Assembly (NCBI RefSeq): GCF_900079115.1
Contig: NZ_LT549890.1
Span: 1,680,001 to 1,712,000, forward strand
From: Saccharolobus solfataricus
GTDB taxonomy: Archaea; Thermoproteota; Thermoprotei_A; Sulfolobales; Sulfolobaceae
Direction: 5' to 3'
Length of the DNA stretch: 32,000 bases
Program-made: the position numbers and the translations under genes
In this document: piece by piece, positions 11,999 to 27,993 of the stretch
Layout: the number at the start of each line of letters is the position of its first letter
Position numbering within the stretch: the stretch's first letter is position 1
The notes under the pieces: generated by a model
The model's database searches: none
What the model saw: only the letters and a program-made list of their open reading frames with translations
What the model was told of the DNA's origin: nothing

Positions 11999-12152
11999 GT
12001 GGGCATAGATCCTAACTACAGACAAAGTAGACAAGTAGTAGGAGAGCACGAAGGTCATAAGATATATGGACCAGTTGATGAGCCTAAAGTCCTAGGCGTT
12101 CATGGTACTATTGTTGGTGTTGACTTTGACGTATGTATTGCGGACGGTTCGT
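11999..12152 (+). pseudogene. zfx: Zinc-containing 7Fe ferredoxin, N-terminal half, truncated by IS insertion
   Basis: GTG start at 11999 with GGTGAGG 5-11 nt upstream. Translation [51 protein letters not shown] matches the characteristic N-terminal extension of Sulfolobus zinc ferredoxin. It ends exactly at the IS terminus. Confidence 0.85.
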
Positions 12153-13361
12153 GACGTTGTCCGATTTGAGCAAAATTAAAAACCATTATAATTACAACAT
12201 CTCAGATTATACTATTCTTCATTATATTCAGCCATAAAAAATAATATAATATATATTAATGAGGGAAAATACAGATAATTGTACAATCTTGCAATAAAAT
12301 TTGCCATAACAATAAGTAAACACGTAAACGAACCTCGTTAATTAACGAGTACCTTCGTCCTAATCCTCGTCGAAAGAATTTCGAGATCACGATAGAAGTT
12401 AAGGAAGAATACCTCCATAACCACTCCCCTTAAGGTTGTAGACGAAGCCTTACCTTCCCTAATCTCAACACCACTACCCTCAACCGGAAGCCTAGCACTA
12501 CCAACACCCTTAACTAAGACGTCCTTCCTAGAAATCCAAGCCCTATCAGCCATTAACTTAACGTTATCAAATGAAAAGGCTAGATCACTCAAATTAGCCA
12601 ATCCAACCTTGAAGTCCCTAACGAAATTAGTCCTCCTTTCCACAAGATTACAGACCTTAAACCCGAAGTAGGACTTACCGTGCTTCCTACCCCAACCCTT
12701 ATACTTCCTAAAGGCTGTGAAGCTCTTGAGCTTGGAAGTAGTATAACCCATGAGGAGAAAAACGTCATTGAACCCCATCTCCTTAAGGTCAAGTGAGATC
12801 TTCTCAAGACCGTTTTGAAGACTCCTCTTTCCTGGGTAGGCTTCACGGAAGAATGTGTCAATTATGTGGTAGTCCTCGAACCTATCGTTTTTTCTCTCCC
12901 AACTTCAAGTTCAAAGCCCTTTTCCCTATACTCGCTGATCGCCTTGTCCAAAGCCTTGTTTAACTCATCCATCAGTGTTGTTCTCATCGTCTCGCCCTCT
13001 TGAATAACTGTTTGTTGTAGTTTCTTGTAGAAGGAGAATACTGTGCTCTTTGGTGGAATTTTCCCGCCCAAGAAGTCCATAAACATCTTACTGTCCCTAA
13101 TTTCTCCCTCCAAGTTATTCCAAGAGATGTCGAAAATGAGCTTGATTAGGAGGAGTTTGAGGAGTGAGATGACGTTCCACTTAGGCTTCTTGGAGTAAAG
13201 GGACTTAAGCTTACTCCTAAACGTTTCTCAAGGGAAGGATTTATCTACCTTGAGCAAGAGGTCCTTTTCAGTTGAAATTGCCTTTACCATAATATTATCT
13301 CATCCTAATTTCTTATTAATATTACTCATGAATTGCCATTTTAATCAACTTGGATAACGTC
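12153..13361 (-). mobile_element. IS5-family insertion sequence, 1209 bp (ISC1212/ISC1225-like by size), copy 1
   Basis: Imperfect TIR GACGTTGTCCGATTTGA versus GACGTTATCCAAGTTGA. Near-identical to 21959-23167 and, inverted, to 26620-27828. Confidence 0.9.
12338..13290 (-). pseudogene. IS5-family DDE transposase (DUF772-like N-domain plus DDE domain), interrupted by an in-frame TGA and a -1 frame change
   Basis: TGA (tca on the plus strand) at 13228-13230. The frame switches at the T6 (A6) run 12888-12893. Motifs IIDTFFREA, LMADRAW and VVMEVFF mark the D, D and E regions. Confidence 0.75.
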
Positions 13362-13590
13362 ACGATCGAAACGACTAATTGTGAAAATTTCTAGCCTGAT
13401 TCAATTTTACTAATACTTTTCGAATAAGATGACTGCATGAGAACACTCCCTAATAAAAAGAGTTTATTTTAGCTAACTTATAATATGAAACATAGTTATT
13501 TATCATTATAAACTAAACTTTTGGTCTAAGATGACTTTTTAGGCTTTATGACAGTTAAAAAAAACTGGTTAGTACTATATACTTACTTGA

Positions 13591-14493
13591 GTGAAAATGT
13601 GGGTTGAACTAGATTTAAATCCTATACTCGATAAAGATCTTGATTTAAAGAGACAAGTTAAAGAAGAAATACAAAAGGAAAAAATAGATTCGACCATAAC
13701 TATAGATCTTATACGGTCACTGAATAAAGATATACTTGATGTAAACGCTCTTGGCCTAGAAGATAGAGATTATAATTTATATATATGGTCTCTCATAGAT
13801 TCATATTTTGTTACTGGAAATAATAAGTCGTATGAGCTAGTTAACGAATTGTTATCAAAGAGAAAAACATTACATTCATCTCTCTTTCAGTTAAAAGTAT
13901 ATGATATTACTAAAGACAAGTCAATCCTTACAAGCGTATCCGATACGATATTTAAATTAGATGAATATTGGGGAGAGGACTTATTGGCCTTAGCTAAATT
14001 ATCATATATAACGCAAGATCTCAAAATTGTTAAAAGATCTACGGAAATAATGCTAAATAAACTAGAGGAGATAGAGAGACAAGGTGGAATAAAAAGTGAA
14101 ATAGATGTGGAAATGGGTATGGGAGCACTAAAAGGGCTTTCTTTAATAAATATTAATTATAGTAAATATCCAGACATATTAGAGAAAATTAAATATTATG
14201 ATGATAAATATTTTGTCCCTATGTTTGAATTCATAGGTAATAAACCTAATATTCCAGAGTACTTGGATTCACTTCAAGTTATTCCAATGCTAGCCTCATC
14301 TAAAGAGTTCACTGTGTTTGCTGCTACAAAAGATATAAAGTATTTGAAAGGTACTATAAAATTATATAAATATTATCAAGAGTATTTAAATACTATAGGG
14401 ATTACTAAAACCTCGTTAAGGCAAAAATTGTGGGGATTGATTGCTCTTAGCAGAATAGTATATTTCATTGAAAAAGGAAAGATTTTAGATTAA
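13591..14493 (+). CDS. Hypothetical protein, 300 aa, predicted all-helical, very AT-rich gene
   Basis: Long ORF followed 16 bp later by a co-oriented membrane-protein gene. No recognisable catalytic motif. Confidence 0.6.
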   Translation: MKMWVELDLNPILDKDLDLKRQVKEEIQKEKIDSTITIDLIRSLNKDILDVNALGLEDRDYNLYIWSLIDSYFVTGNNKSYELVNELLSKRKTLHSSLFQLKVYDITKDKSILTSVSDTIFKLDEYWGEDLLALAKLSYITQDLKIVKRSTEIMLNKLEEIERQGGIKSEIDVEMGMGALKGLSLININYSKYPDILEKIKYYDDKYFVPMFEFIGNKPNIPEYLDSLQVIPMLASSKEFTVFAATKDIKYLKGTIKLYKYYQEYLNTIGITKTSLRQKLWGLIALSRIVYFIEKGKILD

Positions 14494-14509
14494 AGTACTG
14501 TAAACTAAT

Positions 14510-26238: not shown

Positions 26239-26335
26239 CCAATATCATAGTTATTCAATTTTTAATTGGTTGGCTCTCTTTATCCAAATTAGTATTTTCC
26301 GTACACCACAAATTCATTATTCCGAAATTAACTAA

Positions 26336-26619
26336 AAGAATATTATATCAAGAGATCCAAAGTGTATAATTATAGAACTAGCATGGGGAGATGGAGCTAC
26401 TTCTAAGCCTAATGAGTGGATTGAACTGCTAAGACAGAAGGGATTTAAAATATTTTTATTCAGATTAACTGCTAATAGAAAAGATATTGAAGAAAGAGTT
26501 AGGGAAAGGTATGAAAAAACTCATGAAGGACCTACCGTTAATAGTGCTCTTGAAATTTATGATTGGTATATGAATAAAAAATGTTTTATCGATTTTCCTA
26601 AAAAATGTGGATTGAACGA
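26336..26619 (+). pseudogene. Start-less fragment resembling the C-terminal part of a P-loop kinase (AAA_33-like); 3' end at the IS junction
   Basis: The open frame reads ..CIIIELAWGDGATSKPNEWIELLRQKGFKIFLFRLTANRKDIEERVRERYEKTHEG...FPKKCGLN. There is no P-loop and no start codon after the stop at 26333-26335. Confidence 0.3.
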
Positions 26620-27828
26620 GACGTTATCCAAGTTGATTAAAATGGCAATTCATGAGTAATATTAATAAGAAATTAGGATGAGATAATATTATGGTAAAGG
26701 CAATTTCAACTGAAAAGGACCTCTTGCTCAAGGTAGATAAATCCTTCCCTTGAGAAACGTTTAGGAGTAAGCTTAAGTCCCTTTACTCCAAGAAGCCTAA
26801 GTGGAACGTCATCTCACTCCTCAAACTCCTCCTAATCAAGCTCATTTTCGACATCTCTTGGAATAACTTGGAGGGAGAAATTAGGGACAGTAAGATGTTT
26901 ATGGACTTCTTGGGCGGGAAAATTCCACCAAAGAGCACAGTATTCTCCTTCTACAAGAAACTACAACAAACAGTTATTCAAGAGGGCGAGACGATGAGAA
27001 CAACACTGATGGATGAGTTAAACAAGGCTTTGGACAAGGCGATCAGCGAGTATAGGGAAAAGGGCTTTGAACTTGAAGTTGGGAGAGAAAAAACGATAGG
27101 TTCGAGGACTACCACATAATTGACACATTCTTCCGTGAAGCCTACCCAGGAAAGAGGAGTCTTCAAAACGGTCTTGAGAAGATCTCACTTGACCTTAAGG
27201 AGATGGGGTTCAATGACGTTTTTCTCCTCATGGGTTATACTACTTCCAAGCTCAAGAGCTTCACAGCCTTTAGGAAGTATAAGGGTTGGGGTAGGAAGCA
27301 CGGTAAGTCCTACTTCGGGTTTAAGGTCTGTAATCTTGTGGAAAGGAGGACTAATTTCGTTAGGGACTTCAAGGTTGGATTGGCTAATTTGAGTGATCTA
27401 GCCTTTTCATTTGATAACGTTAAGTTAATGGCTGATAGGGCTTGGATTTTTAGGGAGGACGTCTTAGTTAAGGGTGTTGGTAGTGCTGGACTTCCGGTTG
27501 AGGGTAGTGGTGTTGAGATTAGGGAAGGTAAGGCTTCGTCTACAACCTTAAGGGGAGTGGTTATGGAGGTATTCTTCCTTAACCTCTATCGTGATCTCGA
27601 AATTCTTTCGACGAGGATTAGGACGAAGGTACTCGTTAATTAACGAGGTTCGTTTACGTGTTTACTTGTTGTTATGGCAAATTTTATTGCAAAATTGTAC
27701 AATTATCTGTATTTCCCCTTATTAATACATATTATATTATTTTTTATACTTGAATATAATGAAGAATAGTATAATCTGAGATGTTGTAATTATAATGGTT
27801 TTTAATTTTGCTCAAATCGGACAACGTC
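26620..27828 (+). mobile_element. IS5-family insertion sequence, 1209 bp, copy 3 (inverted relative to copies 1 and 2)
   Basis: Reverse complement of copy 1 with a few substitutions. Flanked by ACGA (26616-26619) and TCGT (27829-27832). Confidence 0.9.
26691..27643 (+). pseudogene. IS5-family transposase: ATG at 26691, in-frame TGA at 26751-26753, -1 frame change at the A6 run 27088-27093
   Basis: Frame 0 reads MVKAISTEKDLLLKVDKSFP*ETFRSKLKSLYSKKPKWNVISLLKLLLIKLIFDISWNNLEGEIRDSKMF...GSRTTT*. The -1 frame is open from 27077 and reads ..EKNDRFEDYHIIDTFFREAYPGK... through to 27643. Confidence 0.75.
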
Positions 27829-27993
27829 TCGTGTATAACTGCATGTCCAGTAAACGTTTTCAGATGGTTTGATACTCCGGGAAATCCAGTATCTGAAAAG
27901 AAAGCTGATCCGTTCAATGAGCAAGCTTGCATATTCTGTATGGCATGTGTTAACGTTTGTCCAGTAGCTGCAATAGATGTGAAACCACCGTAA
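27829..27993 (+). pseudogene. zfx: Zinc-containing 7Fe ferredoxin, C-terminal half
   Basis: After the duplicated TCGT the frame reads [53 protein letters not shown]. It carries both ferredoxin Cys clusters (C..ACP and C..C..C...CP). Confidence 0.85.

Follow-up and report, generated by a model that had tools for sequence, protein, structure and literature searches.

In a 32,000-nucleotide stretch of the Saccharolobus solfataricus chromosome (contig NZ_LT549890.1, positions 1,680,001 to 1,712,000; hereafter, the window), the gene for a zinc-containing ferredoxin, zfx, is split in two by a 15,676-bp unit. Two copies of the insertion sequence (IS) ISC1212, inverted with respect to each other, form the borders of this unit, and the tetranucleotide TCGT flanks it on either side. 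The most economical explanation, and the one that we consider probable, is that the whole unit entered zfx in one transposition using two like ends, in the style of the composite transposons Tn5 and Tn10. A preliminary description made from the letters of the window had proposed a composite transposon at this site. Our analysis supports that proposal and adds to it an empty site with conserved gene order in a relative, a duplication of the 4-bp length native to ISC1212, and the absence of individual duplications at the bounding copies.

The split zfx gene and its empty site

The two halves of zfx end exactly at the outer termini of ISC1212 copies 1 and 3, and all coordinates that had been assigned to the halves and to the unit between them hold (Table 1). 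Joining of positions 11999 to 12152 to positions 27833 to 27993, with a single TCGT retained, yields an in-frame open reading frame (ORF) of 104 codons, and the join is exact to the base. The alignment proposed as a check on this product is colinear: the joined ORF matches zfx of S. islandicus over 100% of its length at 96% identity, without gaps at the DNA level. Residues 2 to 104 also align with the zinc ferredoxins 2VKR (E = 5e-65) and 1XER (E = 8e-63), both of which have solved structures. Three histidines of the N-terminal extension had been put forward as zinc ligands, and they are kept in these alignments (His17, His20, and His35), together with the zinc ligand Asp77 and all cysteines. 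Pfam Fer4 domains were likewise found in the joined product. The reconstructed ORF encodes a zinc-containing ferredoxin of the Sulfolobales Zfx type, with a histidine-bearing N-terminal extension and a di-cluster ferredoxin core.

An uninterrupted empty site, suggested as a further check, was found in S. islandicus M.16.27. This strain carries an intact 104-codon zfx reading ...GATGGC-TCGT-GTATAAC... across the site, with one TCGT, whereas in the window TCGT stands outside both IS ends. The neighbors of the S. islandicus gene are those of the window, i.e., a 150-amino-acid (aa) ORF, a hemerythrin-like 146-aa gene, and 348-aa and 242-aa genes on the left, and a 176-aa gene, a 660-aa coenzyme A-ligase-like gene, and a DUF981 gene on the right. 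Homology between the two genomes breaks at 12153 and picks up again at 27828, which are the tips of the IS copies. Because the join is full length and gap free, the empty site has a single TCGT, the neighbors are the same, and homology breaks at the IS tips, the two pieces are a single gene, interrupted by an insertion that duplicated 4 bp of its target, and are neither a chance arrangement nor paralogous fragments. The insertion point lies in the codons for Ser51-Cys52.

Between the joined zfx and the S. islandicus gene, 30 nucleotides differ, 27 of them synonymous changes, and the joined gene carries no insertions, deletions, or stop codons. Purifying selection therefore acted on zfx during most of the period after S. 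solfataricus and S. islandicus separated. It ended only fairly recently, in keeping with a discrete insertional knockout. Both halves are identical in the P2, 98/2-like, and CP160827 genomes; the insertion took place before the sequenced S. solfataricus strains diverged and is young relative to the species split. The split also explains the ferredoxin "fragment" in S. solfataricus annotations, where the C-terminal half appears in strain P2 as a 61-aa "Ferredoxin (Carboxy-end fragment) (zfx-2)." As a separate observation, a reading frame beginning at a TTG within the outward IS end continues in frame through the C-terminal half (window 27803 to 27993), and this hybrid is listed as a protein in P2.

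ISC1212 termini, footprint, and target preference

The three ISC1212 copies of the window are 1209 bp each and differ from one another at 12 to 23 positions (~99% identity). Copies 1 and 3 constitute an inverted repeat of 1218 nt with 99% complementarity. The preliminary description had the bounding copies inverted with the same end facing outward, and this geometry is confirmed to the base: the terminus GACGTTGTCCGATTTGAGCAAAAT points outward at 12153 and, as its reverse complement, at 27828. The two termini of ISC1212 are imperfect inverted repeats that can be told apart (GACGTTGTCCGATTTGAGC... versus GACGTTATCCAAGTTGATT...), with differences at 6 of the 24 terminal positions, and the outward ends of copies 1 and 3 match the ends of aligned solo copies over all 24 terminal bases. 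Both zfx halves abut the identical terminus on the same strand, with the 15,676-bp unit between them. The IS-end pattern gave seven matches in the window, where none was expected.

The footprint of the element was read from solo copies at other loci (L013, L017, L020, and L022). Since each of these four carries a perfect 4-bp direct repeat (ACGT, ACGG, TCGT, and TCGT), the normal footprint of ISC1212 is a 4-bp duplication at NCGN; the flank of a fifth end that was fetched reads CCGT. The extended word TCGTGTA is common to the zfx site and two solo sites, i.e., three independent sites, so that zfx was hit at a preferred ISC1212 target. Footprint and target preference of this element are now defined as 4 bp at NCGN, often within TCGTGTA. 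At copies 1 and 3 of the window, individual target duplications are absent; their flanks, in IS orientation, are TCGT/ACGA and ACGA/TCGT, respectively.

Two other ways of reading the flanks were rejected. Ancestral duplications cannot be recovered by pairing the six flanking 4-mers, since several pairings are consistent and the target spectrum is narrow, with ACGA and TCGT dominating. TCGT as a part of the IS inverted repeat is at odds with the reversed flanks of copies 1 and 3, with the other 4-mers found at solo copies, and with the one TCGT that the intact gene needs.

In P2, the two transposase genes are named "First ORF in transposon ISC1212" and "Second ORF in transposon ISC1212." The conceptual 317-aa product matches Pfam PF05598 (DUF772 transposase domain, N-terminal) above cut-off (E = 5.8e-7) and has no match to the Pfam DDE domain (DDE_Tnp_1). 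The latter result is consistent with the placement of ISC1212 in an atypical IS5 group, in which the DDE spacing fails to line up with the spacing in other IS5 members (PMC3852290). Every ISC1212 copy changes frame at GAAAAAAC between the two transposase ORFs, plausibly a candidate programmed -1 frameshift. Solo copies measure 1212 to 1213 bp, except for one deleted copy of 1193 bp, and these lengths fit the name of the element. All three window copies share a 3-bp deletion as well as a TGA codon where solo copies carry TGG (Trp). They are thus unable to make full-length transposase now and are nonautonomous at best. Solo copies that lack this nonsense codon are present in S. solfataricus genomes.

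Copy 3 equals copy 1 over IS positions 380 to 1209 (830 bp) in this strain, and its positions 1 to 379 resemble copy 2. In 98/2-like strains, copy 3 (locus L001, 12797 to 14008) has a canonical right part, with 10 substitutions and a 3-bp indel. These sequences point to strain-specific gene conversion between inverted ISC1212 copies 13 kb apart.

Probable one-step insertion through two like ends and its alternatives

When an IS inserts alone, each half of the target becomes linked to a different IS end. IS copies can recombine and thereby invert or translocate the DNA around them, but such homologous recombination never alters which terminus abuts a unique flank. In zfx, both halves sit at the same terminus, on the same strand, and across one 4-bp cut; therefore, two like ends of inverted IS copies must have been inserted together. 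The reading as a composite transposon is further supported because the bounding copies lack duplications of their own and the duplication around the unit has the native length of ISC1212 footprints.

From the observed split, empty site, duplication, like-end geometry, 4-bp footprint, and absence of individual duplications at copies 1 and 3, we infer a model that supplies the single step, the source of transposase, and the chemistry, be it cut-and-paste or replicative. The event would have taken place in an ancestor common to the sequenced S. solfataricus strains, with a unit of two inverted ISC1212 copies around ~13.3 kb of DNA. ISC1212 transposase, most likely provided in trans or by copies that were then intact, would have synapsed the two outward GACGTTGTCC termini. 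These would have been joined to a 4-bp staggered cut at TCGT, a preferred NCGN target, and repair of the stagger would have duplicated this word. The cargo may already have been a dumping ground for other IS elements or have become one later. Gene conversion among the three ISC1212 copies would have followed later, and the unit would have been fixed in the species. Today, it is an old and fixed relic, probably immobile.

Several observations weigh against this history. The TGA codon of all three window copies leaves their transposases defective. The target spectrum of ISC1212 is so narrow that flanking 4-mers carry little independent information, which makes the duplicated word weaker evidence than 1/256, and a second hit at the same TCGT is conceivable. 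No donor or second site of the unit was found, with one locus only in all S. solfataricus genomes reached by our searches, and the copy-1 ORF and neighboring cargo genes likewise occur only at the zfx locus in all genomes reached. Moreover, both inner flanks read ACGA on the plus strand (13362 to 13365 and 26616 to 26619), and this further direct repeat is a coincidence of ~0.2 under the simple model, as estimated from seven other insertion flanks.

Capture of the cargo through inner and outer ends is an alternative that would also account for the inner repeat. The ISC1212 pair would then have acted via both end pairs, i.e., outward ends at TCGT in zfx and, before or afterwards, inward ends at ACGA in circular DNA, whether plasmid or excised circle. 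We regard this as rather improbable. If true, the cargo would be a captured linearized circle within nested 4-bp duplications (outer TCGT...TCGT and inner ACGA...ACGA), and the locus would be a natural archaeal instance of "inside-out" composite transposition leading to replicon capture. Such capture predicts contiguity of the two cargo ends. An ORF joined across them had no homologue in the protein database, and homologues of SSO1767/SSO1768 in S. shibatae and in an Acidianus metagenome-assembled genome (MAG) have unrelated upstream neighbors. These results lend the prediction no support, without strictly refuting it.

The unit might also have been assembled in place, a route that we judge unlikely. 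Two ISC1212 insertions at the same TCGT in opposite orientations would have produced zfxN-TCGT-[IS>]-TCGT-[<IS]-TCGT-zfxC, to which cargo was added later; its source would have been either a further inverted ISC1212 pair, through gene conversion or a double crossover, or circular DNA that the inward ends entered by transposition. A repeated hit is less demanding for an element with a strongly preferred target: TCGTGTA was used at three independent sites, and its right-hand context persists after a first insertion. Nonetheless, at least three events are needed here instead of one, and no intermediate, be it a single IS or an IS pair spaced by 4 bp, was seen in zfx. Recombination as the source of cargo is in line with the behavior of ISC1212 copies, which clearly recombine (copy 3 equals copy 1 over 830 bp here, but not in 98/2-like strains), although this route requires a pre-existing IS-cargo-IS donor. 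The circular-DNA route accounts for the direct repeat of the inner flanks and fits the plasmid-derived DNA of the cargo. Against it, the cargo is not a simple circular plasmid, as it combines chromosome-like and plasmid-like blocks and ends at an integration junction, and the SSO1767/SSO1768 homologues of S. shibatae and the Acidianus MAG do not lie beside anything like the other cargo end.

Another history starts from one ISC1212 copy inserted in zfx, with at least one later inversion or translocation mediated by homologous recombination between IS copies. It is very hard to reconcile with the locus, and we agree with the preliminary description that it cannot give this layout. The reciprocal flanks of copies 1 and 3 would elsewhere be a classic sign of inversion, and the IS sequences are mosaic. 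However, reciprocal 4-mers are fairly frequent by chance in a target spectrum rich in ACGA and TCGT, and the ancestral target reconstructed under this history (zfxN joined to a cargo end) differs from the S. islandicus sequence. What decides the matter is that both halves lie at the same end and on the same strand, since recombination inside an IS cannot change the junction between flank and terminus; the assignment of termini is firm, given the 6 of 24 terminal positions that differ.

The poorest account of all is that the split reflects an assembly artifact across near-identical IS copies, or two unrelated fragments of ferredoxin paralogues, and we give it next to no credence. Three ~99%-identical repeats of 1.2 kb within 16 kb are a recognizable hazard for assembly, and zfx paralogues do exist in Sulfolobales. 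Yet the same order and junctions recur in AE006641, CP033235, CP160827, and further assemblies, so that independent complete genomes rule out the misassembly that had been named as a possible refutation, and the 12 to 23 differing sites suffice to place the copies. As for paralogues, the neighbors on both sides are syntenic with those of a single intact S. islandicus gene, and the join is exact to the base.

Occurrence of the unit in genomes

The window is 99.5 to 99.9% identical to the corresponding loci of P2 (AE006641), the 98/2-like genome CP033235, and CP160827, all of which share the split structure, and 100% identical to several short-read contigs. The short-read contigs stop exactly at the IS boundary. 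The proteins of the window correspond to SAI854xx accessions of LT549890, a record treated in one preprint as the reference genome of strain P1. A search for the same unit at other loci with different 4-bp duplications had been recommended in the preliminary description, and the genomes reached contained no such case. In structure, the unit qualifies as a composite transposon; its presence at two or more loci was not seen in this genome set.

Wider searches were negative within their respective scopes. A scan with a degenerate IS-end pattern returned 0 matches in a genome contig collection that evidently holds no S. solfataricus genomes, and a search of genome contigs for related loci with the 280-aa cargo protein returned no confirmed locus. 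Metagenome scans with the IS-end pattern and the ISC1212 transposase gave no matches. The plasmids of PLSDB showed no match to ISC1212 or to the SSO1767/SSO1768 block.

Comparison with known systems

As in Tn5 (IS50) and Tn10 (IS10), two inverted copies of one IS surround unrelated DNA and turn the same terminus outward at either edge; a duplication of IS-typical length brackets the unit as a whole, and the individual copies are without duplications of their own. The differences lie in the element and in its cargo. ISC1212 is an atypical archaeal IS5-family element with a 4-bp NCGN footprint, in contrast to the IS4 family and 9 bp of the bacterial transposons; its outward ends are the transposase-distal ones, with both transposase genes reading outward; and the unit carries no selectable cargo, has defective transposase genes, and is known here from sequence alone.

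With simple ISC1212 insertions in S. solfataricus, the zfx unit shares the termini, the 4-bp duplication, the preference for TCGT/TCGTGTA, and a two-ORF transposase with the GAAAAAAC frameshift. It differs from them in that two copies serve as the ends of one 15.7-kb unit and in the 1209-bp length (3-bp deletion) and TGA codon of these copies. The arrangement also recalls IS26-type duplicative inversion or intramolecular replicative transposition, which leaves two inverted IS copies around a segment and inversely related 4-mers or 8-mers. That process sends the target halves to different IS ends and inverts the intervening DNA, whereas the zfx halves are at the same end and keep their strands.

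Composite transposons in the archaeal literature covered here are engineered, proposed from flanking IS copies alone, or merely suspected. Engineered haloarchaeal examples (Dyall-Smith and Doolittle 1994, as cited in PMC12023398) resemble the zfx unit in placing identical or near-identical IS copies around cargo in an archaeon. Such IS copies also surround archaeal cargo, amoAB, on a soil thaumarchaeal fosmid (PMC3379541); that case was proposed from the flanking IS copies alone, and the zfx unit adds an interrupted gene, an empty site, and a matching duplication. Full-text literature searches on archaeal composite transposons and ISC names returned no description of the zfx unit, although an earlier one is possible because the main papers on the P2 genome and on archaeal IS elements lay outside their coverage.

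The significance of the locus should be seen in this light. In archaea, composite transposons are usually proposed on the sole ground that genes are found between two IS copies. Here, an interrupted gene, its empty site, a duplication of native length, and like ends come together in what would be a well-documented natural archaeal case of an IS moving long foreign DNA as a composite unit. No new mechanism is revealed; the unit appears to be a fixed relic with junk cargo and gives a clean archaeal counterpart to what is well known from bacteria. For an experimental test or a genetic tool in Sulfolobales, the locus offers a design in which a marker is flanked by two GACGTTGTCC ends and transposase is provided in trans.

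A mosaic cargo

A cargo of about 13.3 kb with a C/D box small RNA (sRNA) had been described between the bounding copies. The length stands, at 13.25 kb, and the sRNA in part. The cargo is a mosaic in which IS elements, the remnant of a conjugative plasmid, and genes acquired horizontally are combined (Table 1), which is a caveat on the unit.

Table 1. Positions of zfx, ISC1212 copies, and cargo features in the window
Feature	Position	Strand	Remarks
ISC1212 end remnant, solitary	8194-8364	+	171 bp; GACGTTGTCC end; flank ACGA; 4 kb outside the 15.7-kb unit
zfx N-terminal half	11999-12152	+	GTG start; codons 1-51 and base 1 of codon 52; holds the three His zinc ligands
TCGT target duplication, left copy	12149-12152		Directly outside ISC1212 copy 1
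ISC1212 copy 1	12153-13361	-	GACGTTGTCC end (transposase-distal) faces the zfx N-terminal half; transposase ORFs on the minus strand
Inner flank ACGA of ISC1212 copy 1	13362-13365		Differs from the outer flank of copy 1
Cargo	13366-26615		13.25 kb; mosaic
SSO1767/SSO1768 block	13451-15645		84% identical to an S. shibatae chromosomal segment; the two genes also given as 13591-15634
ISC1491 (IS110 family)	~15.7-17.2 kb
Three-gene module	17510-19868		Major facilitator superfamily (MFS) transporter, 280-aa UCP032817-like protein, 89-aa protein
ISC1359	~19987-21345
IS110-family fragment	21370-21958		Followed by ISC1212 copy 2
ISC1212 copy 2	21959-23167	-	Within the cargo; orientation as copy 1; flanks ACGA/GCGA
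Conjugative-plasmid remnant	23211-25510		Broken by ISC1234 (~23718-24946)
C/D box sRNA candidate	23580-23634	+	In the plasmid-derived block
SSO1802 and truncated ORF	25816-26619		Beyond the att-like junction; ORF cut by copy 3
Inner flank ACGA of ISC1212 copy 3	26616-26619		Plus-strand direct repeat with 13362-13365
ISC1212 copy 3	26620-27828	+	Inverted relative to copy 1; GACGTTGTCC end faces the zfx C-terminal half
TCGT target duplication, right copy	27829-27832		Directly outside ISC1212 copy 3
zfx C-terminal half	27833-27993	+	Remainder of codon 52 through stop

At the DNA level, the three-gene module shares 92% identity with Acidianus brierleyi and with two metagenome contigs, and the borders of the match are sharp. 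Because this identity is high for different genera, it points to recent acquisition by horizontal transfer between genera. The MFS gene of the module is interrupted in this strain (265-aa ORF) and is 382 aa long in 98/2-like strains.

The plasmid remnant shares 88% identity with pB12E5 of S. shibatae, and pARN3, pING1, and pNOB8 match it as well. Plasmid homology stops exactly at a 47-bp stretch (25463 to 25509) whose identity to the att/integrase region found in SSV viruses and in pARN/pHVE-type conjugative plasmids is 95 to 98%. Since the homology ends precisely at this att-like stretch, it is an old integration junction inside the cargo. One match labels the att-like region as overlapping tRNA-Glu, and ARAGORN found no complete tRNA at these positions.

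In the sRNA candidate, the C, D', C', and D boxes are readable (ATGATGA, CTGA, TGATGA, and CTGA), with two 12-nt spacers and the stem GGGGTCA/TGACCCC. Its best Rfam match, sR3, scores 24 bits, below the gathering score of 41.

P2 (AE006641) is colinear with the window only to ~20608, within ISC1359, and has other IS genes beyond. There, a partial ISC1359 lies beside an IS110-family element in which an IS630-family element is nested, and P2 also has a duplicated 437-bp piece (window 21524 to 21960, inverted). Judged by accession numbering, the P2 unit has ~24 further annotated genes inside.

Other features of the window

The solitary ISC1212 remnant sits in a 1-kb insertion relative to S. islandicus (window 8113 to 9139), next to an IS607-type serine-recombinase/resolvase ORF (8471 to 9055). 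A related ISC1212 end remnant is present in S. shibatae (locus L029, 17255 to 17428).

Strains of the 98/2-like group carry an extra 1058-bp IS with a DDE_Tnp_1_5/DDE_Tnp_1 transposase (locus L010, 4534 to 5591), which is absent from the window. Its site is inside the hemerythrin-like 146-aa gene (window 10938 to 11378) to the left of zfx, and its flanks overlap by 9 bp in BLAST alignments (window 11246 to 11254), consistent with a 9-bp target duplication.

Tandem repeats of 42/63 nt encode a QEEVKRQGEAIVSLQ-type motif in a 210-aa ORF at the left end of the window (16 to 237, 25 to 657), and an inverted paralogous stretch with 80% similarity lies 4.4 kb from them (5045 to 5498). Dispersed direct repeats of 63 to 119 nt, which share 67 to 88% identity and resemble miniature inverted-repeat transposable elements or IS ends, occur at 2457 to 2628, 17455 to 17517, and 31686 to 31858; one copy adjoins the border of the Acidianus-like module.

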